Source: Chloroflexota bacterium (lineage in GTDB: Bacteria; Chloroflexota; Limnocylindria; Limnocylindrales; CSP1-4). Taken from it: a stretch of 64,000 nt of DNA. The stretch's first letter is position 1. Every line of letters begins with the position of its first letter. The stretch spans positions 15,986-79,985 of the forward strand of contig JBJOLT010000018.1 in NCBI GenBank assembly GCA_046045415.1, written 5' to 3'. Under the pieces are notes generated by a model. It did no database searches. It saw nothing but the letters and a program-made list of their open reading frames with translations, and had not been told where the DNA came from. Position numbers and translations under genes: made by a program. Positions 3,429 through 20,168 of the stretch are shown here, one piece after another.

Positions 3429-3458
3429 CCGGACCGCGAGGGCGTCGGCTCGCGGCTA
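3425..3458. terminator. GC-rich interrupted hairpin between convergent genes (possible bidirectional terminator)
   Basis: gtagccg-gac-cgcgag [ggcgtcgg] ctcgcgg-ctac is an inverted repeat sitting exactly between the ALDH stop (3428) and the Ndt-like stop (3456). No U-tract, so weak as a classical intrinsic terminator. Confidence 0.3.
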
Positions 3459-3884
3459 CCCGCGTCGGAGCGAGGCGAGCGCGCCGAGGACCGTCGCGGC
3501 CACCGTCTCCATGTCCGCGATCGGCAGCTCGTAGCGGAGCGTCGCCGATCGGGTGAGCATCAGGTTGTACGGGTCGCCCGGCTCGCCCCACGAGCGGAAG
3601 TCGGTCCGGATCATCACGATCGGCTTCCCCTTCGCGTACGCATAGCCGACCTCCCAGCAGGTCCCCGAGTCCGGGTCCTCGCCGTCCATGATCGCGACGA
3701 GCGCCTCGGACCAGTCGACGTGGCGGACGTCGCTCTCGAAGGTCTGCTGCGGCGTCGTCGCGTCGAACTCCTGCTCCTGGGGGAGGAAGACCTCGTGGCC
3801 CGCGGCGACGAGCCGGTCCCGGAGCCGTTCGTTCCACTCCCGCTCCGCCGAGGTGAAGAGGGGACCGGCGAAGTAGATCCGCAT
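3456..3884 (-). CDS. Nucleoside 2-deoxyribosyltransferase-like protein (Ndt/DNPH1/MilB-BlsM family, PF05014)
   Basis: 142-aa product MRIYFAGPLFTSAEREWNERL...GEDPDSGTCWEVGYAYAKGKPIV matches the Ndt-like fold signature (N-terminal GPLF, DSGT.WE.GYA). Trimmed from tracked ORF 3456..4382, whose N-terminal 160 aa are Arg/Pro junk. There is a 2-nt gap to upstream ribokinase, suggesting co-transcription. Confidence 0.8.
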   Translation of the reverse strand: MRIYFAGPLFTSAEREWNERLRDRLVAAGHEVFLPQEQEFDATTPQQTFESDVRHVDWSEALVAIMDGEDPDSGTCWEVGYAYAKGKPIVMIRTDFRSWGEPGDPYNLMLTRSATLRYELPIADMETVAATVLGALASLRRG

Positions 3885-3886
3885 CG

Positions 3887-4819
3887 TCAGCTCCTGATCG
3901 AGGCAAGGAGGGCGGCCGCCGCGGCGCGATCGGCGAGCGAGCTCTGCGTCCCGTGGCGCGTGACGCTGTCCGCGGCCGACGCGCAGCCGAGCCGGGCGGC
4001 GTCGACCGGTGCGAGCCCGACGGCGAGGCCGACCGCGAAGGCACCGACGAACGCGTCGCCGGCGCCGGTCGTGTCGACGGCGGTGACCCGCGGCGCGGGG
4101 ACCCGGACGACCTCGAGCGACCCGCGGACGAGGAGCGCCGCGCCGCGCTCGCCGAGCGTCACCGCGACCGAACCCCCGGTCCGGGCGGCGAACGCCGCGA
4201 TCCGCGCGTCCTCCCCGGCCGGATCGCCGTCGAGCCTGCCGCCCCCGATCAGCTCGAACTCGTGCTCGTTCGGGACGAGCCAGTCGCTCAGGGCGAGGAG
4301 CTCCGGCTCGATCTGGGCGCCGGGCGCCGGGTTGAGGATCGTCGTCGCACCGATCGAGCGGGCGGCCCGGAAGCCGGCGCACGTCACCCGCTGCGGGACC
4401 TCGAACTGGCCGACGACGACGGCGGGGCGGAGCGTCCGGACCGCTTCCTCGGCGAGCGCGGGGGGCGTCGCGTCGTTCGCCCCCGGGACGACGATGATCC
4501 GGTTCATCCCGCTCGCGTCGACCCAGATCGGCGCGACGCCCGAGGACCCGGGGACGCGCCGGACGTACGTCGTGTCGACCCCCTGGACGCGGAGGTTCTC
4601 GAGCGTCTCGCCGCCGTACGCGTCCTCCCCGACCGCGTTGACGAGGGCGACGCGGGCGCCGAAGCGCGCTGCGGCGACCGCCTGGTTCGCGCCCTTGCCG
4701 CCGAAACCGGAGCGGAACTCACGCCCGATCAGCGTCTCGCCGGCCTCCGGGATCCGGTCGGCGTACGTGATCAGGTCGATGTTCGTGCTCCCGACCACGA
4801 CGATCGTCGGCTCGCCCAC
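3887..4819 (-). CDS. rbsK: Ribokinase
   Basis: PfkB-family motifs GGKGANQA and DTTGAGDAF. GTG start at 4819 preceded by GGAGGA. 310 aa; trimmed from ORF 3887..4990. Confidence 0.88.
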   Translation of the reverse strand: MGEPTIVVVGSTNIDLITYADRIPEAGETLIGREFRSGFGGKGANQAVAAARFGARVALVNAVGEDAYGGETLENLRVQGVDTTYVRRVPGSSGVAPIWVDASGMNRIIVVPGANDATPPALAEEAVRTLRPAVVVGQFEVPQRVTCAGFRAARSIGATTILNPAPGAQIEPELLALSDWLVPNEHEFELIGGGRLDGDPAGEDARIAAFAARTGGSVAVTLGERGAALLVRGSLEVVRVPAPRVTAVDTTGAGDAFVGAFAVGLAVGLAPVDAARLGCASAADSVTRHGTQSSLADRAAAAALLASIRS

Positions 4820-5004
4820 GCTCGCTCCTCCCGATTCCGTTCTCCGGCGAGGGGAATGGTGCCGCCTCGGCCGCCCGCGCGCACGTTGCCCGCGCACGCC
4901 GCCCGCGCACCCGCGTCGCGCGCGGCGAAGCGGAGTGCACGCCGCCCGCGTCCCCATCCCGTATCGTCTCCGTCGACGCCAGAAGGGCACGCTGAGGAGA
5001 CGCG

Positions 5005-6000
5005 ATGACGCAGAGCGCGTTCTGGGAGAGCCCGGTGATCGCCTCGACGATCCCGGTCGTGAAGGACTCGCGCTGGGTCCGGACGAACGCCGCCGCCGTC
5101 GACCGGGTCGCCGGCTGGATGGCCTACGAGGAGTTCGGCCTCCCGGACGGCGCCCAGATGTTCGACTTCGGGTCCGATCCGGACCTCCTCACCGACGTCA
5201 CGCTCTTCGTCAACTGCCTGAACTTCGCCTTCACCGACTTCGCCACGTCCCGCAAGTTCGAGCTCGAGTACCGCGGCCGGACCTGGTCCGACTCCGAGGC
5301 GATGGTCGCCGCGCTCCACCGTGCGCACGCCGCGGGCGAGCCGATCTTCACCGGCGCGTGGATGGCCGGCGTCACGAGGGCCGACCTCGAGCGGGTCTTC
5401 GCCGGTTCGATCGAGATGCCGATGCTCGACGAGCGGGTCGCGATCCTCCGCTCGGTCGGGGCGACGCTCGTCGACCGGTTCGACGGGAGCTTCCACGCCT
5501 GGGCCGCCGGCTGCGAGCCGGCGATGTACGCCGGCGGGAACGGGCTCCTGGAGCGGCTCGTCACGGACTTCCCGCGCTTCGAGGACTCGCACGTCTTCAA
5601 GGGGAGCCGCGTCCGGATCTACAAGCTCGCGCAGCTCGCGCTCTGGGGGCTCCACGCCATGTGGGTCCGCCAGGGGCGCGCCGGGATCCGCGACCTCGAC
5701 CGGATGTCCGCCTTCGCCGACTACATCGTCCCGGTCGCGCTCCGGGTGATGGGGATCTTCCAGTACGTCCCCGATCTGGAGCGGCGGATCATGGCCGGCG
5801 AGCCGATCGCGCGCGACAGCGAGGAGGAGATCGAGATCCGGGCCCACACGCTCTACGCGACGGCGCTCCTCACCGATGCCCTCAACGAGCTCCGCCCGCC
5901 GGAGCTCCGCCTCGTCATCCCGCAGGTCGACTACCGGCTCTGGAAGTCCTACCACGCGACGTTCCACCCGCATCACCTGACCGTCACGACGATGTACTGA
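5005..6000 (+). CDS. Queuosine-salvage protein, Qng1/DUF2419 family (queuosine / queuosine-5'-phosphate N-glycosylase-like)
   Basis: 331-aa product aligns block-by-block with eukaryotic QNG1 (C9orf64): LNFAFTDF, EYRGRTW, MPMLDERVAILRSVG..FDGSF, FKGSRVRIYKLAQL, AFADYIVPVALR, EEEIEIRAHTLYA. RBS GAGGAGA lies 5 nt upstream of the ATG at 5005. Divergent from rbsK. Confidence 0.8.
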   Translation: MTQSAFWESPVIASTIPVVKDSRWVRTNAAAVDRVAGWMAYEEFGLPDGAQMFDFGSDPDLLTDVTLFVNCLNFAFTDFATSRKFELEYRGRTWSDSEAMVAALHRAHAAGEPIFTGAWMAGVTRADLERVFAGSIEMPMLDERVAILRSVGATLVDRFDGSFHAWAAGCEPAMYAGGNGLLERLVTDFPRFEDSHVFKGSRVRIYKLAQLALWGLHAMWVRQGRAGIRDLDRMSAFADYIVPVALRVMGIFQYVPDLERRIMAGEPIARDSEEEIEIRAHTLYATALLTDALNELRPPELRLVIPQVDYRLWKSYHATFHPHHLTVTTMY

Positions 6001-6014
6001 GCGGGCGCCGACCC

Positions 6015-7223
6015 GTGGATCGTCCCCGCCTCGGCCCGTACCGGGAGCTCCTCGGCCACCCGGGGGCCCGGACGCTCGCGCTCTTCGGCCTCCTCGGGCG
6101 CGCCCCGATGGCGATGTTCCCCGTCGCGCTCGTCGCGGCGGCCGCGGGCGCGACGGGCGGCGGGGAGGGCTACGCGCTCGGCGGCGCGGCGGCCGGGGCG
6201 AGCGCCTTCGCCTCGGCGGTCGCCGCTCCGCCGATCGGCAGGCTCGTGGACCGGCACGGTCAGGGCGCCATCCCCCGGCTCCTCGCGCTCGTCTGCGCCG
6301 CCGCCGCGCTCGCGATCGTCGCCTCGCTCCTCGTCATCGGCGCGACCCCGCTCATCGTCCCGCTCGCGGCGATCGCCGGGGCGTCGCAGCCGGCGATCGG
6401 GACCCTCACCCGCGCCCGATGGATGGCGCTCCTCCACGGGACGCCGGCCGGCGACTCCGCCCAGGCGCTCGAGTCGATCAACGACGAGGTCTCGTTCCTC
6501 ATCGGGCCGTCGCTCGTCGCCATCCTCGCGACGGTCGGGTTCGTGGGCCTCCCGATCGTCGTCGGCTCGATCCTCCTCGTCTCGGGCGTCTTCGGGCTGA
6601 CGTCCCGCCGGAGCCTCCCGCCCCCGCCGCCCCACCCCCGCCTCGAGGGGGAGTCGCGCTGGCCCCCCTTCCCCGCGGGCCGCTCCGTCCTCCTCGCCAC
6701 CGGCCTCCTCGGGATCGCGCTCGGCTCGGTCCAGGTCGTCCAGCTCGCCTACTCCCGGTCGCTCGGCCTCGAGACGGGCGCCGCCCTCGTCTTCTTCGTC
6801 TACTCCGCGGCGAGCCTCACCGGTGCGATCGTCGTCGGGGCGATCTCGTGGCGGCAGCCGCCGCGCCGGCGGCTCGCCCTCTCGCTCCTCGTCTACGTCG
6901 CCGGCCTCCTCCCGAGCGCGCTCGTCTCCGGCTACCCCGCCTTCGTCGTCGCCTCGCTCCTCGCGGGCATCGCGATCGCGCCGACGTTCATCCAGGCGAA
7001 CGCGCTCGTCGCCGAGGCGACCCCCACCCGGTACCGGACCGGCGCGTTCGCGGTCCTCGGGTCGGCGACGATCCTCGGGATCGCCGCGGGGTCCGCGCTC
7101 ACCGGCGCCGCCGTCGACGCGCTCGGCGCGGATGCGGCGCGGTCGGTCCTCGTCCCGATGGCGGCGGCGGTCGGCCTCGCCGGCCTCCTCGTCGCCCGCT
7201 CCGGGGTCAGCCCGGGCGGCTGA
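6015..7223 (+). CDS. MFS transporter
   Basis: About 400 aa with 11-12 predicted TM helices, MFS-like charged loops, and a pre-TM1 YRELL...R.L motif. Start taken as GTG at 6015, 14 nt after the Qng1 stop; ATG at 6108 or 6114 are alternatives. The tracked ORF 3720..7223 is mostly spurious upstream. Confidence 0.72.
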   Translation: MDRPRLGPYRELLGHPGARTLALFGLLGRAPMAMFPVALVAAAAGATGGGEGYALGGAAAGASAFASAVAAPPIGRLVDRHGQGAIPRLLALVCAAAALAIVASLLVIGATPLIVPLAAIAGASQPAIGTLTRARWMALLHGTPAGDSAQALESINDEVSFLIGPSLVAILATVGFVGLPIVVGSILLVSGVFGLTSRRSLPPPPPHPRLEGESRWPPFPAGRSVLLATGLLGIALGSVQVVQLAYSRSLGLETGAALVFFVYSAASLTGAIVVGAISWRQPPRRRLALSLLVYVAGLLPSALVSGYPAFVVASLLAGIAIAPTFIQANALVAEATPTRYRTGAFAVLGSATILGIAAGSALTGAAVDALGADAARSVLVPMAAAVGLAGLLVARSGVSPGG

Positions 7224-8454
7224 GCGCGATGACGAGGTGCTCGTAGCCCCGGAACTGGAAGGTGGGGCGGCGGGCGGTCCCGGGGAGGACGTGGATCGCC
7301 TCCTCGGTCCTCGCGAGCTCGGTGAGCGTCGTCTCGAGCTCGAGCCGGGCGAGCGGGGCGCCGATGCAGAAGTGGATCCCGCCGCCGAGCGAGAGGTGGC
7401 TCGTGTCGGCGCGGGCGACGTCGAACCGGTCCGGGTCGGGGTGCTTGCGCGGATCCCGGTTCGCCGCGGCGAGGACGAGCGCGACCCGCCCGCCCTTCGG
7501 GATCTCCGTCCCGGCGATGACGACCCCGTCGTCGAGGACCCACCGCTCGAACCACTGGAGCGGCGGGTCCCAGCGGAGGACCTCCTCGATCGCGGCGCGC
7601 GGCGAGACGACGCCGTCCCGGACGAGCCGCCACTGGTCCGGGTGGGCGGCGAGCGCCGCGATCCCGTTCGACGAGGCGTTCACCGCCGCCTCGTGGCCGG
7701 CCATGAGGAGCACCATCGCGGTCGAGACGATCTGGTCGTCGGTGAGCCGCTCCCCGTCGACGGTCGCGCCGACGAGCGCGGTGAGGAGGTCGTCGCCCGG
7801 CCGGCGCCGCCGGTCGGCGACGAGCTCGAGGAGGTAGCGGCGGAAGTCGCCGGCGGCCCGGTTCGCCGTCGCCTGCTGCTCCTCGCTCGGCCCGGGCTCG
7901 TACATGCTGATCGTGTCGTCCGAGAGGCGGAGGATCGTCCAGCGGTCGCTCTCGGGGACGCCGATCAGGTCGCAGATGATCCCGAGCGAGTAGGCCTGCG
8001 CGTACGAGCCGACGAGGTCGATCGAGCCGGCCTCACGCCCCTCGTCGAGGAGGCGGACCGCCCGGTCGCGGATCGACGACCGGAGCCCCTCGACCGCCCG
8101 GGGCGTGAACGCCTCGGTCACGAGCCGGCGGAGCTTCGTGTGCTCCGGCGGCTCGAGGTTGAGGAGCTCCCACCGCTCGAACGCGTGGTAGTCGGTCCAG
8201 CGCGGGTCGCGCCACGTCGGGATCCCCGGCGAGACGCCGAGCTCCTCGGGCGTGTAGCGGTGGAGGAACGTCGTCCCGAGCCGGCGGTCGCGGAAGGCCG
8301 CGTGGACGTCCTCGTAGCGGGTCAGGTACCAGAGGTGGTCGCCCTCCGGGTGCCAGACCGGCGTCGTCTCCCGGACCCGGGCGTACGCGGGGTACGGGTC
8401 GGCGACGAAGCCGGGGTCGGCCGGGTCGAACGCAAGATCCGGCCGGACGGTCAC
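7207..8454 (-). CDS. Cytochrome P450
   Basis: 415 aa with heme-binding FxxGxHxCxG (LGGGIHFCIGAPLARLE), the EVLRWDPP (ExxR/PERF region) and the AGHEAAV I-helix. GTG start at 8454 overlaps the stop of upstream udp (GTGA). Confidence 0.9.
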   Translation of the reverse strand: MTVRPDLAFDPADPGFVADPYPAYARVRETTPVWHPEGDHLWYLTRYEDVHAAFRDRRLGTTFLHRYTPEELGVSPGIPTWRDPRWTDYHAFERWELLNLEPPEHTKLRRLVTEAFTPRAVEGLRSSIRDRAVRLLDEGREAGSIDLVGSYAQAYSLGIICDLIGVPESDRWTILRLSDDTISMYEPGPSEEQQATANRAAGDFRRYLLELVADRRRRPGDDLLTALVGATVDGERLTDDQIVSTAMVLLMAGHEAAVNASSNGIAALAAHPDQWRLVRDGVVSPRAAIEEVLRWDPPLQWFERWVLDDGVVIAGTEIPKGGRVALVLAAANRDPRKHPDPDRFDVARADTSHLSLGGGIHFCIGAPLARLELETTLTELARTEEAIHVLPGTARRPTFQFRGYEHLVIALSRPG

Positions 8455-9260
8455 CGCGCGGGAGCCGCGGCTGGGCCTCCGGTCGCCCGGTCGCGGGCGA
8501 TGAGGACCCGGAGCCCCTCGACCGCGGCGTCGATCACCGGGTCGATCGAGAAGTCCTTCATCGAGGCCTCCGCCTCCTCCCGGGTCATGTCCGGCGCGCC
8601 GGCGCAGACCATGATCCCGCCGGCGCGGACGCGCGCGATCGCGGCGACGATGAAGATCGCGGCCGCCTCCATCTCGGAGCTGACCGCGCCGCCCCGCACC
8701 CACGCCTTCCAGCGCGCCGCGAGCTCGTCGGCGATCGGCATCCGCTCCGGCTCCACCTCGCCGTAGAAGGAGTCCTTCGACTGGCTGACCCCGAGCCGCG
8801 CGAGGGCGCCGGTCCGGCGCGCCGCCTCGCGGAGCGCGTCGACGACGTCGATGTCCGCGAGCGCCGGGTACTCCATCGGGAGGTAGTGGCTCGTCGTCCC
8901 TTCGTCGCGGATCGCCGCCGTGATGATCGCCAGCTCGCCGGTCCGCATCCCCGGCTGCATCCCGCCGGACGTGCCGACGCGGATGAACGTGTCGGCTCCG
9001 CAGCGGATCAGCTCCTCGACCGCGATCGCCGCCGACGGGCAGCCGATCCCGGTGGAGGTGCACGAGACCGCCACCCCGTCGAGCTCGCCCGTCCACGTCA
9101 CGTACTCGCGGTTCCTCGCCACGAAGCGCGGGTTGTCGAAGCGCGACGCGATCCGCTCGACGCGCCCCGGGTCCCCGGGGAGGAGGACGTACCGGCCCAC
9201 GTCGCCCGGGCGGAGCGCGACGTGGTGCTGCGGCTCGCCCGTGGGCGCGGCCCAGGTCAT
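8451..9260 (-). CDS. udp: Uridine phosphorylase-like nucleoside phosphorylase (PNP/UDP family 1)
   Basis: Strong similarity to E. coli Udp: LPGDPGRVERIA, STGIGCPSAAIAVEEL, GVSQSKDSFYG, SEMEAAA. 269 aa. Confidence 0.8.
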   Translation of the reverse strand: MTWAAPTGEPQHHVALRPGDVGRYVLLPGDPGRVERIASRFDNPRFVARNREYVTWTGELDGVAVSCTSTGIGCPSAAIAVEELIRCGADTFIRVGTSGGMQPGMRTGELAIITAAIRDEGTTSHYLPMEYPALADIDVVDALREAARRTGALARLGVSQSKDSFYGEVEPERMPIADELAARWKAWVRGGAVSSEMEAAAIFIVAAIARVRAGGIMVCAGAPDMTREEAEASMKDFSIDPVIDAAVEGLRVLIARDRATGGPAAAPAR

Positions 9261-9273
9261 GCGGGCGCCGCTC

Positions 9274-10065
9274 TCAGGAGCCGAGCCGGCCGCTCGCGCG
9301 GTCGTTGCGGATGAGGACGCGGAGACCGGCGATCGCCGCGTCGATGACGCGCTCGACGTCGCCGAGCGCCTGCTCCTCGGGGGTCGGCGGCAGGTGGTCG
9401 AGGTTCTGGAAGAGGAGCATCACGCCACCCGCGCGGACGCGGAGCGTCGACGCGACGATGAAGAGCGCCGATGCCTCCATCTCCGAGGCGACCGCGCCGC
9501 CGGCCATCCACGCCTTCCACCGCTCGGCGAGCGCGTCGGCGACCGGCATCCGCTCCGGCTCGTGCTGGCCGTAGAACGAGTCCTTCGACTGCGCGACCCC
9601 CACGTGGACGCCGTAGCCCGTCGAGCGCGCGCCCTCCCGGAGGGCGAGCGTCACGTCGAGGTCCGCGACCGCGGGGAACTCGATCGGGAGGTAGTGGCGG
9701 CTCGTCCCCTCGTCGCGGATCCCGCCGGTCACGACCGCGATGTCGCCCGTCCGGATCCCCCGCTGGAGGGCGCCCGCGGTCCCGACGCGGATGAACGTGT
9801 CGACGCCGATCGCGGCCAGCTCCTCGACGGCGATCGCGGTCGACGGGCAGCCGATCCCGGTCGAGGTGCAGGAGACCGGGACGCCGTCGAGGCTCCCGGT
9901 CCACGTCACGTACTCGCGCTTCTCGGCGACGAAGCGCGGGTTCTCGAAGCGCCGCGCGATCCGCTCGACCCGGCCGGGGTCGCCCGGCAGGAGGACGTAT
10001 CGCCCGACGTCGCCCGGCCGGAGCGCGATGTGGTGCTGGCTGCCGTCGGGCTCGGTGAGGGACAT
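9274..10065 (-). CDS. udp: Uridine phosphorylase-like nucleoside phosphorylase, tandem paralogue
   Basis: 263 aa with the same motif set (LPGDPGRVERIA, STGIGCPSTAIAVEEL, GVAQSKDSFYG, SEMEASA). 13-nt gap to the downstream paralogue. Confidence 0.8.
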   Translation of the reverse strand: MSLTEPDGSQHHIALRPGDVGRYVLLPGDPGRVERIARRFENPRFVAEKREYVTWTGSLDGVPVSCTSTGIGCPSTAIAVEELAAIGVDTFIRVGTAGALQRGIRTGDIAVVTGGIRDEGTSRHYLPIEFPAVADLDVTLALREGARSTGYGVHVGVAQSKDSFYGQHEPERMPVADALAERWKAWMAGGAVASEMEASALFIVASTLRVRAGGVMLLFQNLDHLPPTPEEQALGDVERVIDAAIAGLRVLIRNDRASGRLGS

Positions 10066-10081
10066 CGCGGGTCGCCCTTTC

Positions 10082-10975
10082 TCAGACCGAGGCCATCGCC
10101 CGGATCGCGACGACGAAGACCCCGACGAAGACGACGAAGCCGACGAGGAAGATCGCGATCGCGACCTGCTCCGGGAAGACGAGGAAGGCGGAGGGATCGC
10201 GCCCCCAGTTGAAGATGCCGTAGACGAAGAGCGTCGTCATCGTCACGACCCCGATGATCCCGACGGCGACGTCGAGCGGGCCGCTCGGGACCCGCCGATA
10301 GGAGGTCTTCTGGCCGACCGACCCGAAGGCGCGCGCCTCGAGGCTGATCGCGAGCTGCTGGACGCGCTCGACGGCCCCGGCGGCGACCGGGACGAACGAC
10401 GGGATGATCGCGCCGAAGCCGGTCCCCTTCATCCCCCGCGAGCGCTGCGCCGCGATGACGAGCCCGACCTCGCGCTGGAGGACGGGGATGAGCTGGAGCG
10501 TCATCGCGATCATGAAGTTCGCGAGGTACGGGACCTTCATCCGGTGGAGCGATGCGAAGAGGTCCGACGGGTGGGTCGTCAGGAGGAGGGCGAAGCCGAT
10601 CACCTGGAAGGCGGTGACGCGGAGCAGGAGCGAGATCGCGTGCGAGAGCCCCTCGTTGTAGATGTTCAGCGGCCCGAGCTGGACCGGCGGGGTGCAGACG
10701 CCGCCGCAGATCGCCGGCGCGACACCCTGGATGACGATGATCGAGGCGTTCACCGGGATGAAGACGAGCATGATCCTCGCGAGCGGCTTCGCGATCCGCG
10801 CGCTCACGGCGACGACGATCCCGAAGAGGAGCGACATGAGGAGCGGGAGCGCCTCGTACGTCGTGAAGCAGAAGAAGGCGAACGGGATGACCCAGGCGAA
10901 CTTCGCGACCGGGTCGAGGCGATGGAGCCAGGACGACCCGCGGACGTGGGTGATCGAAAGCGTGCCGGTGTTCAT
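10082..10975 (-). CDS. ecfT: ECF transporter transmembrane (T) component, EcfT/CbiQ family
   Basis: 297-aa multi-TM protein with the conserved CbiQ-family A-R-G motif region (QRSRGMKGTGFGAI). ATG at 10975 overlaps the upstream ATPase stop (ATGA). Confidence 0.85.
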   Translation of the reverse strand: MNTGTLSITHVRGSSWLHRLDPVAKFAWVIPFAFFCFTTYEALPLLMSLLFGIVVAVSARIAKPLARIMLVFIPVNASIIVIQGVAPAICGGVCTPPVQLGPLNIYNEGLSHAISLLLRVTAFQVIGFALLLTTHPSDLFASLHRMKVPYLANFMIAMTLQLIPVLQREVGLVIAAQRSRGMKGTGFGAIIPSFVPVAAGAVERVQQLAISLEARAFGSVGQKTSYRRVPSGPLDVAVGIIGVVTMTTLFVYGIFNWGRDPSAFLVFPEQVAIAIFLVGFVVFVGVFVVAIRAMASV

Positions 10976-11802
10976 CGGGCGCTCCCCTTCCCGAGCTCGT
11001 CCGCGAGCTCCGCGACGCTGAGGGCCGCCGGCTTCCCCTTCCGGGAGGCGAGGCGGATCGAGATCTGGGTGACCTGCGGCGGGGTGAGGTGCGCGACCTT
11101 CATCACCTCGTCGTTCGCGAAGACCTCGCGGGCGGTCCCGTCGGCGAGGATCCCGGCATTCCACATGACGACGAGCCGGTCGGTGACGTCCGCGAGGAGC
11201 GGCATGTCGTGCGCGACGCAGACGATCGTCGCCCCGCGGTCGCGGAGCTTGTGGATCAGCCGGTTGATGACGGTCGTCGTCTGGTGGTCCTGCCCCGTCG
11301 TCGGCTCGTCGAGGATGAAGACCTTCGGGTGCATCGTGTAGATCGAGGCGATCCCGACGAGCTTGCGGAGCGGGAAGCTGAGCCGGTAGGGGTGGTCGGT
11401 CCGGTACTGCTTCAGGTCGAAGAACTCGAAGGCCTCCTCGACGCGGGCCTCGATCTCCTCCTTCGGGAGCCGGAGGTTCGTCGGGCCGAAGGCGAGCTCC
11501 GCCTGGACCGTCGTCGCGAAGAGCTGGTGGTTCGGGTTCTGGAAGACGTAGCCGATGCTCGACGCGAGCTGCTGGACGCTCAGCTTCGTCGCATCCTTCC
11601 CGTCCACCGTCACGGACCCCGAGGAGGGGCGGAGGAGGCCGTTGAGGAGCTTCGTCAGCGTCGTCTTCCCCGAGCCGTTCGGCCCGGCGATCCCGAGGGA
11701 CTGGCCCTCCGGGATGTCGATGCTCACGCTGTCGAGCGCGACGACGTTCCCGCGCGGGTAGACGTAGCGCGCGTCCTTGACGCTGATGATCGGGGCGCTC
11801 AT
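10972..11802 (-). CDS. ecfA: ECF transporter ATP-binding protein
   Basis: Walker A GPNGSGKTT, signature/Walker B (ILDEPTTGQD), and an EcfA-type C-terminus. ATG at 11802 overlaps the upstream ATPase stop (ATGA). Confidence 0.85.
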   Translation of the reverse strand: MSAPIISVKDARYVYPRGNVVALDSVSIDIPEGQSLGIAGPNGSGKTTLTKLLNGLLRPSSGSVTVDGKDATKLSVQQLASSIGYVFQNPNHQLFATTVQAELAFGPTNLRLPKEEIEARVEEAFEFFDLKQYRTDHPYRLSFPLRKLVGIASIYTMHPKVFILDEPTTGQDHQTTTVINRLIHKLRDRGATIVCVAHDMPLLADVTDRLVVMWNAGILADGTAREVFANDEVMKVAHLTPPQVTQISIRLASRKGKPAALSVAELADELGKGSAR

Positions 11803-12644
11803 CGGCGGGCCTCCAGCCACGTCACGGCCTCGTCCGTCGTCACCGGGAGGTTATTCGACCCCGGTCCCGCGAGCCGGAGCGCCAGCTCGGTCGCCTGCGG
11901 CGAGCGGAGGCCGATCGCGGTGAGCTCGTCGCCGCGCGAGAAGACCTCGGTCGGAGTGCCGACCATGACGATCCGGCCCTCGTGCAGGACGACGATCCGG
12001 TTCGCGAAGGTCGCGAGGACCTCGCTCTCGTGCTCGGCGACGATGACGGTCATCCCCTCGTCGCGGTTCAGCTTCCGCGCGAGCTCGAAGACCTCCTCCT
12101 TCCCGGTCGGGTCGAGGTTCGAGGTCGGCTCGTCCATGAAGAGGATCCTCGGCGACATGACGAGGACGGACGCGATCGCGAGCCGCTGCTGCTGGCCGCC
12201 CGAGAGGCCCATCGGGGAGCGCTCCTCGAAGCCGGCGAGGCCGACCTGCGCGAGCGCGTCGCTCACCCGGGGGATCATCTCCTCGGTCGGGACGCCGAGG
12301 TTCTCGAGCCCGAGAGCGACCTCCTCGGCCGCGCTCACCTGGCTCATCTGGAACTCCGGGTTGTCGAAGACGATCCCGACCCGCTTCGCCATCTCCCGGA
12401 CGGGGGTCGTCGCCGCGTCGAGCCCCTCGACCGTGACCTTCCCCTCGTAGAAGCCCATCGTCGACTGGGGGACGATCCCGTTGAGGCAGAGCCCGAGGGT
12501 CGTCTTGCCGGCGCCGTTGAGACCCATGATCCCGATGTATTCGCCGCGCTCGATCTCGAGGTTCACGTCGGTCAGCGCGGCCCGGCCGCCGGTCGCGTAC
12601 GTGAAGGTCAGCCCCTCGATCGAGATGACACGCTCACCAGGCAC
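11799..12644 (-). CDS. ecfA: ECF transporter ATP-binding protein (second ATPase)
   Basis: Walker A GLNGAGKTT, LSGGQQQRLAIA signature, Walker B LFMDEPTSNLD. GTG start at 12644 with GGAG 6 nt upstream. Confidence 0.85.
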   Translation of the reverse strand: MPGERVISIEGLTFTYATGGRAALTDVNLEIERGEYIGIMGLNGAGKTTLGLCLNGIVPQSTMGFYEGKVTVEGLDAATTPVREMAKRVGIVFDNPEFQMSQVSAAEEVALGLENLGVPTEEMIPRVSDALAQVGLAGFEERSPMGLSGGQQQRLAIASVLVMSPRILFMDEPTSNLDPTGKEEVFELARKLNRDEGMTVIVAEHESEVLATFANRIVVLHEGRIVMVGTPTEVFSRGDELTAIGLRSPQATELALRLAGPGSNNLPVTTDEAVTWLEARR

Positions 12645-12774
12645 GTGTGCTCCAACTCGTGACGCCTGCCGGGCGTCGGGGCCGTCCCCAGGGGGACGGG
12701 CCGAGAACGATACCGCCCGGCCGCGTCGTCCGACGCGACCGGGCGGTCGATTCGCTTGTCCGTGAAGCGAGCTG

Positions 12775-12993
12775 CTAGAGCTCCTTGAGCCGAAGGACCG
12801 CGATCCCCGCGAGGACCGTGAAGAGTCCGCCGAGGACGTTCATCGCCCAGAGGGTGATGTACGCGTTGTCGGGCTCGACGATGTTCACGATCGCGTTCGG
12901 GAGGAAGATCGTGAAGATCCCCATCGCGATGACGCCGACCGCGACCTGCTCCTTCGGACCGACGGTCGCGCCGCCGTTGCCGTTGCCTGCCAT
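12775..12993 (-). CDS. Small (72 aa) two-TM membrane protein of unknown function within the ECF operon
   Basis: ATG at 12993 preceded by GAGGAGAGG at 6 nt. Two hydrophobic helices. Lies 25 nt after the S-component stop and 130 nt before the ATPase. No family recognised. Confidence 0.45.
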   Translation of the reverse strand: MAGNGNGGATVGPKEQVAVGVIAMGIFTIFLPNAIVNIVEPDNAYITLWAMNVLGGLFTVLAGIAVLRLKEL

Positions 12994-13018
12994 TGGTGCC
13001 TCTCCTCAGTCTTCGGGA

Positions 13019-13714
13019 CTAGCTGCTGAGCGCCGGCGTGACGACGAAGACGCTGAGCAGGACGAGGATCACGCCGAGGACGACGCCCCCGACGATGAGC
13101 ATCAGGTTCTGCTGCCCCTCGGACTTCGGGAGCTCGATCCCGGCGGTGAGGCCGGGCGGGAGCGCGCGGAGGATCGCGAGGCCGACGAACGTGGCGATCA
13201 TCTTGTCCGCGATCGAGCCGGTGATGCCGGCGAGGAGCGAGGACGCGATGAGGCTGTTCCCCGCGGCGGCGAAGGCCGCGACGAGGGCGTCGGACGAGTG
13301 GCCGGTGGCGCCGCCGAAGACGAAGACGACGATCGGCGAGGCCATCAGCTGCACGAGGATCCCGCAGATGATGCCGAGGATGACGAGACGGGTCGCCGAG
13401 CGGCCCATCCCGAAGCTCCGGATGCCGTAGCCCCAGACGAGGGCGCCGACGACGTTGCAGAGCGCGAACGGGATCATCGTCGGGCTGATGACGAACGACG
13501 CCGCGGTGTTCGTGATGATGCCCGTGAGGGCGCCCCACCACGGGCCGAGGGCGACGGAGGCCACCATCGTCCCGATCATGTCGAGGAAGATCGGCAGCTT
13601 GAGCGTGCTGTTGATCCACCCGCCGACGATGTTCAGCGCGCCCATCGCGGGCACGAGAACCGCTACGTAGGCGACGGGTACCCGCGCCGCCTTCCCCATA
13701 CTGGCCGCCGTCAT
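13019..13714 (-). CDS. ECF transporter substrate-specific (S) component, specificity unknown
   Basis: 231-aa, 6-7 TM protein as the first gene of a dedicated S-A-A'-T module. ATG at 13714 with GGAGGAGGA about 8 nt upstream. Trimmed from ORF 13019..14077. Cannot be assigned to a named S-component family by eye. Confidence 0.6.
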   Translation of the reverse strand: MTAASMGKAARVPVAYVAVLVPAMGALNIVGGWINSTLKLPIFLDMIGTMVASVALGPWWGALTGIITNTAASFVISPTMIPFALCNVVGALVWGYGIRSFGMGRSATRLVILGIICGILVQLMASPIVVFVFGGATGHSSDALVAAFAAAGNSLIASSLLAGITGSIADKMIATFVGLAILRALPPGLTAGIELPKSEGQQNLMLIVGGVVLGVILVLLSVFVVTPALSS

Positions 13715-14069
13715 GGCTCTGGCTTCCTCCTCCACGACGGGTTCCGAGCCCCCGGTGGGCTCGTCTGCCCGTCCCCGGCGCCGACAGTGGCGCCATTCCA
13801 TTCCCGGGAGCGCGTCCGGCGGGTTCCCTCGACCCGTCGGGCCCTGGACAGGTCCGGGCCTCGCTCCCAGCGACACTCGCGTGCCGATGCGGGGAAGATA
13901 GCCCCGCGCGTCAAGTCCCCGGGACGGACGGTCGGCGATCCGCCCTCGCGGCGGTCCTGCCGGGGGCGCGGACCGGCGCCGGCCCCGACGGTACGGGGCG
14001 GACCGGTACCTTCGTGGGAGGTCGGACCCCTTGGTCCGCCACGGTGGGCTCTGGTAGATTCCCGGTCGC
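13715..14069 (-). promoter_or_regulatory. 355-nt GC-rich structured 5' leader / promoter region of the ECF-udp-P450 operon (riboswitch candidate, class unresolved)
   Basis: Long untranslated leader with several perfect hairpins (ggcgcc-actgtc-ggcgcc; gagccc-accgg-gggctc immediately upstream of the RBS). It has short blocks resembling TPP (GCUGGGA...GGACCUGUCC...CGAGGGAA) and cobalamin (GGGAA...CGCCACUGU) riboswitch cores, but neither consensus is complete. Confidence 0.3.
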
Positions 14070-14144
14070 GCCGACATAGCTCAGCGGTAGAGCAGCTGTT
14101 TCGTAAACAGCAGGTCCTCGGTTCAAATCCGAGTGTCGGCTCCA
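14070..14144 (+). tRNA. tRNA-Thr(CGT): tRNA-Thr (anticodon CGT)
   Basis: Cloverleaf: acceptor gccgaca/tgtcggc, D-arm gctc-agcggta-gagc, anticodon loop ttCGTaa, T-arm ctcgg-ttcaaat-ccgag, encoded CCA. TAGATT -10-like hexamer 11 nt upstream. Confidence 0.9.
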
Positions 14145-15976
14145 TCCGACCGATCAACGGACCCCGGCCCAGTGCCGGGGTTCGTCGTTCCCGCCGACCG
14201 CCCGCGGACGACGAGCCGGCGGAAACCCGTCGGGATCTCGACCCCGTCGACGAGGTGCCGATCGGCGACGAGCGCGTCGCGCCCCGCGCCCGGATCGAGC
14301 TCCAGGCCGGCGGGGGCCGCCTCGAGGAGTGCGTCGAGCATGGCGCGTCCCTCGAGGCGCGCGAGCGTCGCGCCGAGGCAGGCGTGGGCCCCGATGCCGA
14401 ACGCGAGATGGCCGCGCGGGTTCGGCCGGTCGAGGCGGATCTCCGCCGGCGCCGGGAACGCCGTCGCGTCGTGGTTCGCGGAGGGGAAGTCGAGCGCGAC
14501 ATGCGGCGCGATCGCCACGGGACGCCCGTCCGGTCCGCGGTCGATCCGTTCCATGACGAGGTCGGAGGTGAGGCGGAGGACCTCCTCGACGAAGCGGTCG
14601 CGCGCGTCGATCATCCCCTCCGAGGTGCCGCGGTCGCCCGTCGCGACGAGGAGCGGGACGAGGTCGGGCCGGGCGACGAGGCCCCAGCCGAGCCCTGCGA
14701 CGAGCCCGACGACCGTGTCCCGCCCGGCGGCGAGGAGGAGGCTGAGGATCCCGGTGAGCGTCTCCCGGTCGAGCGGCGCGCCGCCGACGGGCGTTGCCGC
14801 GAGCGCGCCGAGGACGCGCCCGGCATCGCCTCGCGCGCCCCGGTCGAGGAGCTCGTCGAGGAACGCGTGGAACGGGACTCCGTCCCGGCGCCCCTCGTGG
14901 TCCCCCCAGACCGAGAGGCCGAACGAGCGGAGGCGCGGCGCGTCGGCCTCGAGGTCGAGGACCCGGGCGATCGAGCCGACGACGAACGGGAGCGCGACCC
15001 CCTCGACGAGCTCGACCGAGTCGCCGGCCGCGAGCGGGCGGAGGAGCGTCGCGGCGTCGGCGCGGATCGCCTCGCGGTGCGGTTCGAGCGCGCCGCGCGA
15101 GAGGAACGGGACGAGCGCGCCGCGGAGCCCCGTGTGCTCGGGCGGATCGGACTCGAGCGGGAGCTGGCGGTACGTGCGGACGTCCTCGTCGCCGCGGTGG
15201 GCGGACGACCAGCGGCCCCAGTCGCGGCCCGCCGCCTTCACCGCGTCGTGACCCGCGACGCGCGGCAGGGCACGGACGCGGGCGGGTCCCACCGGCGCAT
15301 CGAGGCTGCCGGTGTAGCCCGCCCTGATCTCCCCGAAGCGGACTCGCCAGGGTCGTCCGCCGCGCCGGACCCGGCGGACGTGCTCCAGGACCTCCTCGCG
15401 CATCGCCCGCCAGTAGAGCGCCGCGACGAGCGCCGCCACGAGCGCCGCGAGGGCGTCGCCGCGAAGGGCGAGCGCCGGGACGAGCAGGAGCGTCCAGCTG
15501 TCGTACGTGACGAGCCGGTCCGCGACGACGAGCCCGACGAGCGCGGCCACGAGCAGGGCCGCCGCGAGTGCGAGCGGATCGACCACGAGGAAGGTCCCGA
15601 GGATCGGCGAGACGCCGTAGCCGCCCCGGAGGCCGTGCCAGATCGGGAAGACATGCCCGACGACCGCCGCGCCTCCCGCGAGGACCCCGGCCCCCGACCC
15701 GGGGAGGAGCGACTCGAAGGCGAGCGTCGGCAGCGCCGCCTTCGCGACGTCGAGGAGTGCGACGACGACCCCCCACCGCGTCCCGAGGAGGAGCCGGGCG
15801 TTCGTCGCCGACGCCCCGCCCGAGGGGACCGCCTCCCCGCCCGACCCGAACCGGATCGTCACCCTCCGCAGGTCGACGGCCGGGGCGACGAGCCGGCCGA
15901 CGACGACCGCGGCGGAGATCGATCCGGCGAGATAGCCGACGGCGAGCGCGCCGCCGAGGAGCAGGGGGTCGCTCAT
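14123..15976 (-). CDS. PlsY-like (DUF205/G3P acyltransferase family) membrane domain fused to a cytochrome P450 domain
   Basis: Single 617-aa ORF from the internal ATG at 15976. The N-terminal ~200 aa carry degenerate PlsY motifs (SGGASATNA; LLDVAKAALP; GHVFPIWHGLRGGYGVS). The C-terminal ~390 aa carry the P450 ExxR/PxRW region and heme loop FGIGAHACLGATLARLE. No stop separates the two domains. The 3' end overlaps tRNA-Thr by 22 nt on the opposite strand. Confidence 0.7.
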   Translation of the reverse strand: MSDPLLLGGALAVGYLAGSISAAVVVGRLVAPAVDLRRVTIRFGSGGEAVPSGGASATNARLLLGTRWGVVVALLDVAKAALPTLAFESLLPGSGAGVLAGGAAVVGHVFPIWHGLRGGYGVSPILGTFLVVDPLALAAALLVAALVGLVVADRLVTYDSWTLLLVPALALRGDALAALVAALVAALYWRAMREEVLEHVRRVRRGGRPWRVRFGEIRAGYTGSLDAPVGPARVRALPRVAGHDAVKAAGRDWGRWSSAHRGDEDVRTYRQLPLESDPPEHTGLRGALVPFLSRGALEPHREAIRADAATLLRPLAAGDSVELVEGVALPFVVGSIARVLDLEADAPRLRSFGLSVWGDHEGRRDGVPFHAFLDELLDRGARGDAGRVLGALAATPVGGAPLDRETLTGILSLLLAAGRDTVVGLVAGLGWGLVARPDLVPLLVATGDRGTSEGMIDARDRFVEEVLRLTSDLVMERIDRGPDGRPVAIAPHVALDFPSANHDATAFPAPAEIRLDRPNPRGHLAFGIGAHACLGATLARLEGRAMLDALLEAAPAGLELDPGAGRDALVADRHLVDGVEIPTGFRRLVVRGRSAGTTNPGTGPGSVDRSDGADTRI

Positions 15977-16692
15977 CCTCGACCCGCGTCGCCCGCGCTC
16001 GGGTCCTCGGCGGGCGGGCGGCCGCCCATGACGAAGGTGATCTCCGCGATCCGGCCGCGCCGGTCCTTCCGTGTCGCCCGCCGATGGGCGAGGTGGCGAC
16101 GGAGCTTCGGCAGCTCGGCCCACCAGAAGACGACGTTCGCGACGACCGCCATCGCGAGGAGCGCGGGCTCACCCCGCCAGAGCGCCCACGGGATGAGGAG
16201 GAGCGGCCAGACGTCGAACGCGACGAAGGCATCGGCGACGACGAGGCCGAGGCCGAGCCCGGCGCTCGGGAGCGCGACCGTGGCGAGGGGATCGAGGACG
16301 ACGAGCCCGCCGAGGAGCGGCGAGACGCCGTAGCCGCCCCGGAAGCGGTGCCAGATCGGGAGGACGTGACCGACGACCGCGCCCGTCGCGCAGGCGGCCG
16401 CGGCGATCCCGGTCGGGTCGGCGAGCCGGAAGGCGAGCGTCGGGACGAGCGCCTTCGCGATCTCGAGCGCCGCGGTGGCGCACCCGGCGCGAGGACCGGC
16501 ACGCTCGCGGATCGCCGACGGGCCGACCCGTTCGAGGGTCATCGTCGCCCCGGCGTCGTCGACGAGATAGGTCGTCGTCTCGACGTCGCGACCCGGGAGG
16601 AACCGTCGCGCGACGAGCCGGGCGAAGGAGACCGACCCGGCGAGGTAGCCGACGAGGGCGGCGGCGACGAGGAGCGGCGCCGGGACGTCCAC
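15973..16692 (-). CDS. PlsY-like (DUF205) membrane protein, divergent paralogue
   Basis: About 239 aa with LEIAKALVPTLAF and GHVLPIWHRFRGGYGVSPLLG motifs. Motif 1 is degenerate (DDAGATMT). Its stop overlaps the ATG of the PlsY-P450 fusion (ATGA). GTG start at 16692 is uncertain; the remainder of tracked ORF 15973..17169 is Arg-rich junk. Confidence 0.6.
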   Translation of the reverse strand: MDVPAPLLVAAALVGYLAGSVSFARLVARRFLPGRDVETTTYLVDDAGATMTLERVGPSAIRERAGPRAGCATAALEIAKALVPTLAFRLADPTGIAAAACATGAVVGHVLPIWHRFRGGYGVSPLLGGLVVLDPLATVALPSAGLGLGLVVADAFVAFDVWPLLLIPWALWRGEPALLAMAVVANVVFWWAELPKLRRHLAHRRATRKDRRGRIAEITFVMGGRPPAEDPSAGDAGRG

Positions 16693-16760
16693 GTCCCCAT
16701 CGTGGCGGTCGGACCGCGTCGGGCGCAAGCCCTCCCACCCGACCGGGTAGCATCGCGTCG

Positions 16761-19149: not shown

Positions 19150-20168
19150 GCCAGGGGCCGCCGACGACCTCGCGCGTCGAGCTCCTCGAGATCGCGGGCC
19201 GGGAAGTCCGCGTCACCAATCCGGAGAAGGTCTTCTTCCCCCGGGCTGGGTACACGAAGCTCGACCTCGTCCACTACTACCTCGCCGTCGCCGACGGCGC
19301 GCTCCGGGGGGTCGCCGGTCGGCCGATGGCGCTGAAGCGCTACGTCGACGGCGCCGAGGGGGAGCCCTTCTTCCAGAAGCGCGCCCCCGCATCGCGCCCC
19401 GGCTGGACCGAGACGATCGAACTCTCCTTCCCCTCCGGCCGGACCGCGGACGAGATCGTCGTCCGCGACGCCGCGCAGCTCGTCTGGGTCGTCAATCTCG
19501 GCTGCATCGACCTCAACCCCCACCCGGTGCGCGCCGACGACCTCGACCACCCCGACGAGCTCCGGGTCGACCTCGATCCCGTGCCGGGCGTGGCGTGGCC
19601 GCAGATCCGGACCGTCGCCGGCGTCGTCCGCGAGGTCCTCGACGACGCCGGGCTCGTCGGCTGGCCGAAGACCTCGGGCTCGCGCGGGATCCACGTGAAC
19701 GTGCGGATCGAGCGGCGCTGGGGTTTCGGGGAGGTCCGCCGCGCCGCGGTCGCGCTCGCCCGGGAGGTCGAGCGCCGCGCCCCGTCCCTCGCCACCTCGA
19801 AGTGGTGGAAGGAGGAACGGCACGGCGTCTTCATCGACTACAACCAGAACGCGAAGGACCGGACGGTCGCCTCCGCCTACTCGGTCCGCCCGACCCCGGA
19901 CGCCCGGGTCTCGACGCCGTTCGCGTGGGCGGATCTCGACGCGATCGAGCCCGCCGACCTCACGCTCGCGACCGTCCCGGCGCGGTTCGCGGCGATCGGG
20001 GACCCCGCGGCCGGGATCGACCGGGCCGCCGGGTCGCTCGAGCGGCTCCTCGAGCTCGCCGAGCGTGACGAGGCGGCCGGCCTCGGCGACGCGCCATGGC
20101 CGCCGCAGTACGCGAAGGCGCCCGGCGAACCGCCGCGCGTCCAGCCGTCCCGACGCCGCGGGGCGTGA
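19146..20168 (+). CDS. NHEJ DNA polymerase/primase, LigD polymerase-domain protein (stand-alone PolDom)
   Basis: VRVTNPEKVFFPRAGYTKLDLVHYYLAVA...KRYVDGAEGEPFFQK...SGSRGIHVNVRI matches the LigD Pol domain. No ATG/GTG in frame near the conserved N-terminus. Either CTG at 19146 (overlapping the upstream stop as CTGA) or the far upstream ATG at 19020 with an Arg-rich extension. Start uncertain. Confidence 0.72.
   Translation: MSQGPPTTSRVELLEIAGREVRVTNPEKVFFPRAGYTKLDLVHYYLAVADGALRGVAGRPMALKRYVDGAEGEPFFQKRAPASRPGWTETIELSFPSGRTADEIVVRDAAQLVWVVNLGCIDLNPHPVRADDLDHPDELRVDLDPVPGVAWPQIRTVAGVVREVLDDAGLVGWPKTSGSRGIHVNVRIERRWGFGEVRRAAVALAREVERRAPSLATSKWWKEERHGVFIDYNQNAKDRTVASAYSVRPTPDARVSTPFAWADLDAIEPADLTLATVPARFAAIGDPAAGIDRAAGSLERLLELAERDEAAGLGDAPWPPQYAKAPGEPPRVQPSRRRGA

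Follow-up and report, generated by a model that had tools for sequence, protein, structure and literature searches.

In a 64,000-nucleotide stretch of a Chloroflexota genome (contig JBJOLT010000018.1; hereafter the window, meaning the whole stretch that was analysed), whose closest named relatives are 'Candidatus Limnocylindrales', the gene of a CYP107P-like cytochrome P450 stands at the end of an operon that also encodes an energy-coupling factor (ECF) importer and two uridine phosphorylase paralogues, Udp-2 and Udp-1. Judged from gene order and sequence comparison, one clade of this P450 is built into nucleoside-scavenging islands of two phyla, and its repeated presence in such islands points to an unrecognised oxidative step in the recycling of modified nucleosides. 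We lean, if only slightly, towards a role of the P450 in the oxidative de-modification (dealkylation) of a scavenged modified nucleoside or base. Known nucleoside and queuosine salvage comprises transporters, enzymes cleaving the glycosidic bond, kinases and, in anaerobes, a radical S-adenosylmethionine (radical-SAM) lyase. Three conserved components of the islands constitute candidate orphan enzymes, namely the P450, a Udp subfamily marked by a two-residue switch and a ribokinase-like kinase of the PfkB family. A literature search yielded, among its top-ranked papers, no published description of a P450 linked to salvage of queuosine or to its glycosylase Qng1, and nothing relevant was found on P450s with nucleoside hydrolases or modified nucleosides, or on P450s in the nucleoside metabolism of acI bacteria; a transporter survey of queuosine-salvage neighbourhoods makes no mention of P450s or phosphorylases.

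Coupling of the P450 gene to the phosphorylase genes

The genes for Udp-2, Udp-1 and the P450 follow that of the ECF transmembrane component EcfT on the minus strand and are tightly spaced. The EcfT stop codon (TGA, 10084-10082) is separated by a 16-nt spacer from the Udp-2 ATG (10065), the Udp-2 stop codon ends at 9274 and is separated by 13 nt from the Udp-1 ATG (9260), and the Udp-1 TGA (8453-8451) overlaps the GTG start codon of the P450 (8454-8452) as GTGA. These two spacings and the overlap, first listed in a preliminary description of the stretch, were confirmed by reading the minus strand, and the same gene boundaries were obtained from an independent gene call on the public contig. 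The GTG start is moreover backed by the lengths of P450 homologues (411-420 aa) and by their conserved N-termini. Pfam assigns the P450 to PF00067, both Udp proteins to PF01048 (139 and 130 bits), EcfT to CbiQ and two further proteins to the ATP-binding cassette (ABC) ATPases. At NCBI the P450 is deposited as MFM2105338.1 ('hypothetical protein RL338_370') and Udp-1 as MFM2105339.1 ('Uridine phosphorylase').

The P450 is accordingly embedded, in the same orientation, in a nucleoside phosphorylase and transporter operon, as had been proposed, and this linkage is conserved in related genomes (see below). The genes of the region 7207-10065, which had been put forward as the unit, are real, but these coordinates cover only part of a functional unit that extends from about 3456 to 13714. 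A tRNA-Thr gene bounds the operon, and the genes beyond 3456-13714 are unrelated (encoding GT87, PIG-L, aldehyde dehydrogenase (ALDH), PlsY-like and LigD proteins).

Divergence of the Udp paralogues

Udp-1 and Udp-2 share 67% identity, and against TIGR01718 Udp-2 scores 283.4 bits, above the cutoff of 280.3, and Udp-1 270.9 bits, below it. Their best solved relative is the Streptococcus pyogenes uridine phosphorylase (SpUP, PDB 3QPB), which matches Udp-2 with 284 bits over about 250 residues and places both paralogues in its UP-2 class branch. SpUP reportedly reads uracil with Lys162, Gln168 and His169, as Tran et al. are said to have described in 2011. When the active-site residues were compared, all three proved to be kept in Udp-2 (motif SKDSFYGQH), whereas in Udp-1 (SKDSFYGEV) Gln168 is exchanged for Glu and His169 for Val (SpUP numbering). 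The two kinds of motif are referred to below as QH-type and E-type, respectively.

This switch is a conserved property of the pair. In all ten related loci that carry it, the first gene is QH-type and the second has Glu followed by Val, Ile or Leu, and in a genome and metagenome set of 51 QH-type and 61 E-type sequences the two base-contact positions are the only clean discriminators. Residues R91, T94, G96, F162 and E196-M197-E198 of the Escherichia coli enzyme (EcUP) are invariant or nearly so in both types (T94 is replaced by Ser in 3 of the 61 E-type sequences), and the His contacting the 5'-OH (HH motif) is present in both window proteins. The conserved base-contact switch together with unchanged catalytic phosphate and ribose residues therefore argues that the paralogues are sub-functionalised, with Udp-2 most simply a plain uridine phosphorylase and Udp-1 most simply a putative, active phosphorylase for another base. 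Sub-functionalisation had been suggested before from the motifs STGIGCPSAA (Udp-1) and STGIGCPSTA (Udp-2); that difference is real, and the base-contact switch supports the idea more strongly. The accompanying suggestion of a non-canonical nucleoside is plausible for an island with a Qng1-like gene, but Udp-2 looks like an ordinary uridine phosphorylase. The exchange of Gln for Glu and of His for an aliphatic residue in Udp-1 would suit a guanine- or 7-deazaguanine-like base, with its two adjacent hydrogen-bond donors (N1-H and 2-NH2); no characterised UP-2 class member with the Glu/Val motif was found.

The ordered QH/E pair also occurs in Anaerolineae and other Chloroflexota without a P450. 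A library clustered at 50% identity contains QH more often than any other motif, with Glu plus an aliphatic residue as a sizeable minority. The E-type proteins were considered as a single clade, which was rejected since a rough neighbour-joining tree shows no monophyly. Cluster-linked QH and E copies are mutual closest relatives in this tree, so the Gln-to-Glu switch may have arisen repeatedly.

Properties of the P450

The window P450 scores 81.7 bits against PF00067 (gathering cutoff 22.8) and carries the heme-thiolate signature LGGGIHFCIGAPLA with the ligand Cys363 (FCIGAPLA), which is invariant in 15 homologues and across the clade; the K-helix motif E291-x-x-R294 is likewise invariant in the homologues. 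In the I-helix (AGHEAA) Glu255 is kept and Ala256 occupies the position of the usual Thr, leaving the acid-alcohol pair incomplete, and this Ala is invariant throughout the CYP107P-like clade. A few active P450s are known to lack the I-helix Thr, EryF among them, where a hydroxyl group of the substrate assists catalysis.

Among PDB structures the closest is Streptomyces avermitilis CYP107P2 (8YHN, 354 bits, any other entry scoring at most 235), which has the AGHEA I-helix, the MYE motif and hydrophobic heme-proximal residues in common with the window protein. The two are 44% identical, which exceeds the 40% used for membership of the CYP107 family and falls short of the 55% used for a subfamily, and the window P450, to which the preliminary description had given no family, is therefore a CYP107 member that is CYP107P-like without belonging to subfamily P by nomenclature. 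More than 120 homologues are 70-96% identical to it, all of them from metagenomes or metagenome-assembled genomes (MAGs), and compared with CYP107P2 the Chloroflexota proteins have an extra invariant segment in the B-C loop (PxWRDPRW). The physiological role of CYP107P2 is not known, and CYP107P3 O-dealkylates 7-ethoxycoumarin (PMC11214959).

Using as query the CYP107P2 sequence rebuilt from the PDB alignment, we found more than 100 orthologues throughout the genus Streptomyces, all with at least 89% identity, a degree of conservation that is unusual for an orphan P450. Their gene context was considered as a functional clue and rejected, as it offers none and mildly argues against an obligate link with nucleoside genes. 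Downstream of CYP107P2 in S. avermitilis, purA follows at a distance of about 5.5 kb; possibly by coincidence, the P450 of one Limnocylindria clade has purA-purD-purB-purC within a few kb on its downstream side.

Conservation in Limnocylindria genomes

Scanning one genome per species, we identified 31 P450 loci, all in Limnocylindria-type MAGs, which were examined with 10-kb flanks and compared for synteny by tblastn and clustering. Ten loci (type A) have the order S component-ECF-Udp(QH)-Udp(E)-P450, usually accompanied by a convergent pair of a major facilitator superfamily (MFS) transporter and Qng1-like gene and by PfkB. Thirteen loci (type B), confirmed by their Pfam labels, have the order S component-small protein-EcfA-EcfA-EcfT-P450-PfkB without Udp, with 10-13 nt between EcfT and the P450 and 0-2 nt between the P450 and PfkB. 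P450, Qng1-like and PfkB genes occur without ECF genes at two loci, P450 and PfkB only at another two, and the P450 alone at four, one of which lies on a 3.2-kb contig. PfkB is the most constant neighbour of the P450 (about 23 of the 31 loci), and the Udp(QH)-Udp(E)-P450 order, with overlaps or short gaps, is found at nine complete loci and one partial locus.

The salvage block with the P450 is kept on at least three chromosomal backbones, the flanks consisting of housekeeping genes (NAD synthase, RsmI, SSB, GGDEF and pur genes) that vary by sub-lineage. Adjacency to NAD-synthase/CN-hydrolase genes was considered as a hint of nicotinamide riboside and rejected, as it belongs to the backbone of one clade, together with RsmI, SSB, GGDEF and purA-D-B-C, and is missing from the others.

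The preliminary description had allowed for the P450 never being linked to udp in related genomes, and a link was found at 10 of the 31 loci. The recurrence of the Udp(QH)-Udp(E)-P450 order at these ten loci and of adjacent Udp(E) and P450 genes in a more distant lineage argues that the adjacency of P450 and Udp is beyond chance. As a defining unit, the pairing stands only in part: against these ten loci, 13 of the 31 have the P450 between EcfT and PfkB without Udp, and the Udp pair is widely found without a P450. Conversely, since the P450 stands alone at four loci and in Streptomyces, the clade is not obligately tied to nucleoside genes.

Recurrence in other lineages

A metagenome scan with the E-type Udp alignment as query returned 79 loci and two further lineages that carry the P450, namely freshwater Chloroflexota (61-64% guanine plus cytosine, GC) and freshwater acI Actinomycetota (46-48% GC; cluster members named Actinomycetota and 'Ca. 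Planktophila'); the GC content of the window is 74%. The freshwater Chloroflexota loci consist of PfkB-Udp(QH)-IU_nuc_hydro, MFS-Qng1 and S component-small protein-ECF-Udp(E)-P450 blocks, with a P450 that is 56-58% identical to that of the window. The acI islands contain LacI, a Bmp/PnrA-type nucleoside ABC importer, Qng1-like, nucleoside 2-deoxyribosyltransferase-like (NDT-like), MFS, IU_nuc_hydro, Udp(E) and Udp(QH) genes and, on the other strand, an operon of cytidine deaminase (cdd), adenosine deaminase (add), P450 and IU_nuc_hydro, with DeoC and ALDH in between in some contigs. The acI P450 is 34-37% identical to the window protein and matches CYP107P2 with 346 bits (next entry 226), and the I-helix AGHEA is common to all members of the clade.

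A Qng1-like gene is present in the P450 island of all three lineages. Of the 29 metagenomic loci that carry an E-type Udp and span 10 kb or more, 6 have both P450 and Qng1, 20 have neither, 2 have the P450 without Qng1 and 1 has Qng1 without the P450 (Fisher p = 4e-4, in a test that spans only two lineages and is without phylogenetic correction), and both loci with a P450 and no Qng1 are contigs ending where Qng1 would lie. P450-less islands have an S component-ECF-Udp-Udp-MFS core with either Qng1 and PfkB or an IU-type hydrolase, Qng1 and the IU-type hydrolase being the two known alternative routes of queuine release (PMC11130926).

Where the Udp(QH)/Udp(E) pair occurs in clusters that have no P450 (L033, 10234-11457; L045, 12311-14507; L046 and L047), genes of the URO-D family adjoin the MFS gene. 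This family includes corrinoid methyltransferases; no corrinoid protein was seen near the URO-D-family genes of these four clusters.

Possible roles of the P450

In the reading that we favour, the dedicated ECF importer would bring in nucleosides, of which Udp-2 would process uridine and Udp-1, with its re-tuned base pocket, another base. The translationally coupled P450 would act on a scavenged modified nucleoside or on the released base by O2-dependent C-H hydroxylation next to N or O and subsequent loss of the alkyl group, and the product would enter normal salvage via phosphorylases or hydrolases and via the Qng1-like, NDT-like and ribokinase-like enzymes. Any action of the P450 on nucleosides or bases, the type of reaction and the substrate are what we infer here. 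An oxygenase that frees a nucleoside of its modification for salvage has a parallel in the 2-oxoglutarate dioxygenases FJS/PHYHD1, which belong to an unrelated enzyme superfamily (PMC12709175).

Several observations weigh against such a role. No ferredoxin or reductase gene adjoins the P450. As described for CYP107P2, its pocket is lined near the heme by hydrophobic residues, which are conserved in the window protein and do not themselves suggest a polar nucleoside (PMC11214959). At 4 of the 31 Limnocylindria loci the P450 is without the partners described above within 10 kb, and no nucleoside genes adjoin the CYP107P2 orthologues, which belong to the same clade, at the two Streptomyces loci inspected (L117 and L118). 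Finally, as many of the 31 genomes are closely related, some of the linkage is due to common descent, and the narrow base of the Fisher test is to be counted here as well.

Two more specific forms of this oxidative role, concerning queuosine and methylated nucleosides, seem to us about equally likely. Queuosine, or its base queuine, is the most specific substrate candidate and the one that we would place first, with a preQ1-type base as product after removal of the cyclopentenediol. In aerobic Chloroflexota and freshwater acI Actinomycetota, the P450s of the clade would then be O2-dependent counterparts of the radical-SAM queuine lyase QueL, the E-type Udp a queuosine (7-deazaguanosine) phosphorylase and PfkB the queuosine kinase feeding Qng1, an assignment of roles that we consider rather improbable. 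Along the same lines, and just as doubtful in our view, Udp-1 (in acI the IU-type hydrolase) would free queuine, and the P450, as an aerobic analogue of QueL, would hydroxylate the carbon next to the side-chain nitrogen, whereupon the carbinolamine would collapse to preQ1 and a cyclopentenone. If this were true, aerobes could reuse queuine without the oxygen-sensitive QueL.

The presence of Qng1-like genes in the islands of all three lineages and the tracking of Qng1 by the P450 favour a queuosine substrate, as do the adjacency of the P450 to IU_nuc_hydro in acI and to Udp(E) in Chloroflexota. The I-helix without Thr, as in EryF, is a further point in its favour. Glu in place of Gln, as in Udp-1, is the classical reader of the guanine N1-H/2-NH2 edge, and in Sphaerobacter Qng1 (StQng1) it is Asp298 that reads this edge (PMC9881137). 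Furthermore, the kinase forming queuosine-5'-monophosphate (Q-5'MP) has been reported as unidentified, and Sphaerobacter, a related Chloroflexota organism, is without de novo queuosine synthesis (PMC9881137). The ribokinase-like PfkB, which adjoins or diverges from the Qng1-like gene in the window and at four related loci (L035, L041, L048 and L076), is a candidate for this queuosine kinase.

The Qng1-like protein itself is about 35% identical overall to StQng1, whose structures it matches at 1.5e-37. By the residue roles described for StQng1 (PMC9881137), it conserves Lys199 and Asp231, which are catalytic, Phe75 and Tyr232, which stack on the ribose, Asp298 and Trp302, which contact 7-deazaguanine, and also the C-terminal Tyr. 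It may well be a nucleotide glycosylase of the 7-deazaguanine type, though not certainly one specific to queuosine. Against queuosine stands the replacement of W48, H53, Y93 and W94 of the cyclopentenediol pocket and of W299 by Tyr, in an N-lobe alignment that is uncertain. The small or polar residues of the altered pocket suggest a different or bulkier 7-substituent, and the nucleotide that is accepted may, unlike with Sphaerobacter Qng1, differ from Q-5'MP.

Other findings also speak against queuosine. At the 13 type-B loci the P450 has no Qng1 within 10 kb, and the acI context, with cdd and add, is one of general nucleoside catabolism. The S component is not of the QrtT/QueT type and matches another NCBIfam family. 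A riboswitch was sought as a ligand clue and this line was rejected, as Rfam gave only tRNAs and no preQ1 riboswitch in the window (gathering and E-value thresholds) or at nine related loci (gathering threshold). When six-frame translations of the window and of all loci were scanned for motifs, neither tgt nor queA nor any other que gene was detected, with the exception of a QueF-like motif at one locus (L083), which is about 6 kb away from a Udp of neither assigned type.

One of the closest known parallels is the Clostridioides difficile queuine/preQ1 salvage operon queK-qrtT-queL, which encodes a nucleoside hydrolase, an ECF S component and the queuine lyase (Yuan et al. 2019, summarised in PMC11477304 and PMC11130926). 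Both systems combine an ECF importer, an enzyme cleaving the glycosidic bond and one for which the released base is the proposed substrate, and both have a queuosine-salvage signature gene in their neighbourhood, a parallel in architecture that again favours queuosine. In contrast, the window S component is CD3073-like and not QrtT, UP-2-class phosphorylases, Qng1-like and NDT-like proteins take the place of QueK, and the P450 stands at the position of QueL, with neither a radical-SAM QueL nor a preQ1 riboswitch. For the window locus, queuosine is a candidate substrate. The window also resembles Qng1/DUF2419-MFS neighbourhoods (PMC9881137, PMC11130926) in that the PF10343 protein is directly followed by an MFS transporter and that a ribokinase-like gene is adjacent; the MFS gene is paired with the Qng1-like gene in related loci too, and in the acI islands an NDT-family gene likewise adjoins the latter.

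Alternatively, though we consider this unlikely in its turn, the P450 would oxidatively demethylate 2'-O-methyl or base-methylated nucleosides (e.g. N6-methyladenosine), freeing formaldehyde and converting nucleosides that ordinary phosphorylases, hydrolases and deaminases cannot process into canonical ones. The acI islands, in which cdd-add-P450-IU_nuc_hydro is combined with a Bmp/PnrA importer, DeoC and several hydrolases, would suit this as broad catabolic islands, and at the type-B loci the only partners of the P450 are a transporter and a ribokinase-like kinase. The FJS/PHYHD1 dioxygenases demethylate free 2'-O-methyl nucleosides (PMC12709175), and both the O-dealkylation reported for CYP107P3 and the small hydrophobic heme-proximal pocket (PMC11214959) are in line with demethylation. 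On the other hand, demethylation leaves the co-occurrence with Qng1-like genes unexplained and would lead one to look for adjacent formaldehyde-detoxification genes, of which there are none, the acI ALDH being accounted for by DeoC. An ALDH was considered as remover of a P450-derived aldehyde and rejected, as in acI it follows DeoC, which makes acetaldehyde, and in the window it is a mere flanking gene.

That the P450 is an unrelated passenger brought to the operon end by chance, with both Udp proteins as redundant pyrimidine-salvage enzymes, is the least probable explanation: it would agree with the P450 standing alone in some related genomes and in Streptomyces, with much of the synteny lying among related MAGs and with bacterial P450s often being orphan genes, but the tight stop/start coupling with Udp-1 (and with PfkB at type-B loci) and the repeated placement of the clade within nucleoside operons, on more than one backbone and in two phyla, among them acI with its streamlined genomes, make it unlikely, and the base-contact switch of Udp-1 is kept across 61 sequences.

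Components of the locus and minor observations

The coordinates of the functional unit are collected in Table 1.

Table 1 Genes of the P450-containing salvage locus, with window coordinates
Feature	Coordinates	Strand	Basis of assignment
ECF S component, 231 aa	13019..13714	-	weak PF12822; NF045596; 100% match to 231-aa NCBI MAG protein
Small membrane protein, 72 aa, between S component and EcfA'	12775..12993	-	conserved at position
EcfA' ATPase	11799..12644	-	PF00005; TIGR04520 259 bits
EcfA ATPase, 276 aa	10972..11802	-	PF00005; TIGR04521 224 bits
EcfT transmembrane component	10082..10975	-	PF02361 CbiQ
Udp-2, 263 aa, predicted SpUP-type (UP-2 class) uridine phosphorylase	9274..10065	-	TIGR01718; 3QPB
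Udp-1, 269 aa, Udp-2 paralogue with base-contact switch	8451..9260	-	TIGR01718 below cutoff; motif
CYP107P-like cytochrome P450, 415 aa, GTG start	7207..8454	-	PF00067; PDB match; motifs
MFS transporter, convergent with P450	6015..7223	+	PF07690
Qng1-like nucleotide N-glycosylase (putative)	5005..6000	+	PF10343 Q_salvage/DUF2419; StQng1 structures 1.5e-37
Ribokinase-like PfkB kinase	3887..4819	-	TIGR02152 278 bits (cutoff 299.65); ribokinases best PDB matches
Nucleoside 2-deoxyribosyltransferase-family protein (NDT-like), 142 aa	3456..3884	-	PF05014; PDB 7M5H 2.4e-13; D..G...E.G motif

With two EcfA ATPases, EcfT and an S component, the operon contains a complete ECF module. The S component scores below the curated cutoffs, with 21 bits against 30.7 for PF12822 and 113 against 180 for NF045596 ('CD3073 family putative ECF S component'). 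The small membrane protein has no Pfam match; a gene of 66-88 aa is called at its position at six related loci (L033, L035, L036, L037, L119 and L120), and its tblastn matches in related loci are 33-62% identical. It is conserved across the Chloroflexota loci and could form an additional subunit of the ECF system.

The P450 and MFS genes are convergent, with 3' ends that overlap by 17 nt (7207-7223), and no terminator-like structure was detected at this overlap. Promoter and terminator consensus scans of the operon gave nothing and are uninformative at 74% GC. Between the tRNA-Thr gene and the S-component gene lies a 355-nt leader (about 13715-14069, minus strand) without an Rfam match. Comparison of the type-A leaders (L006, L007, L010, L011, L014, L016, L018 and L027) revealed a stem-loop (about 13745-13763 in the window) that closely precedes the Shine-Dalgarno sequence and shows compensatory changes at 4 pairs, and conserved blocks further upstream; the leader may be a cis-regulatory RNA of an unknown kind. 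Type-B loci have a promoter-like TTGTAC-17 nt-TGTAGATT and a nearly leaderless start.

Upstream of the operon, an open reading frame of 617-666 aa (14123-15976, minus strand) fuses an N-terminal PlsY-like glycerol-3-phosphate acyltransferase domain (PF02660) to a C-terminal P450-like domain with the Cys-ligand motif FGIGAHACLG, an unusual combination, and a second, stand-alone PlsY-like gene (15973-16728, minus strand) is located directly after it. Further away, genes for two components of non-homologous end joining, a LigD primase-polymerase (19326-20168, plus strand) and an ATP-dependent DNA ligase (21369-22457, minus strand), flank a gene of the beta-lactamase family (20200-21372, minus strand).

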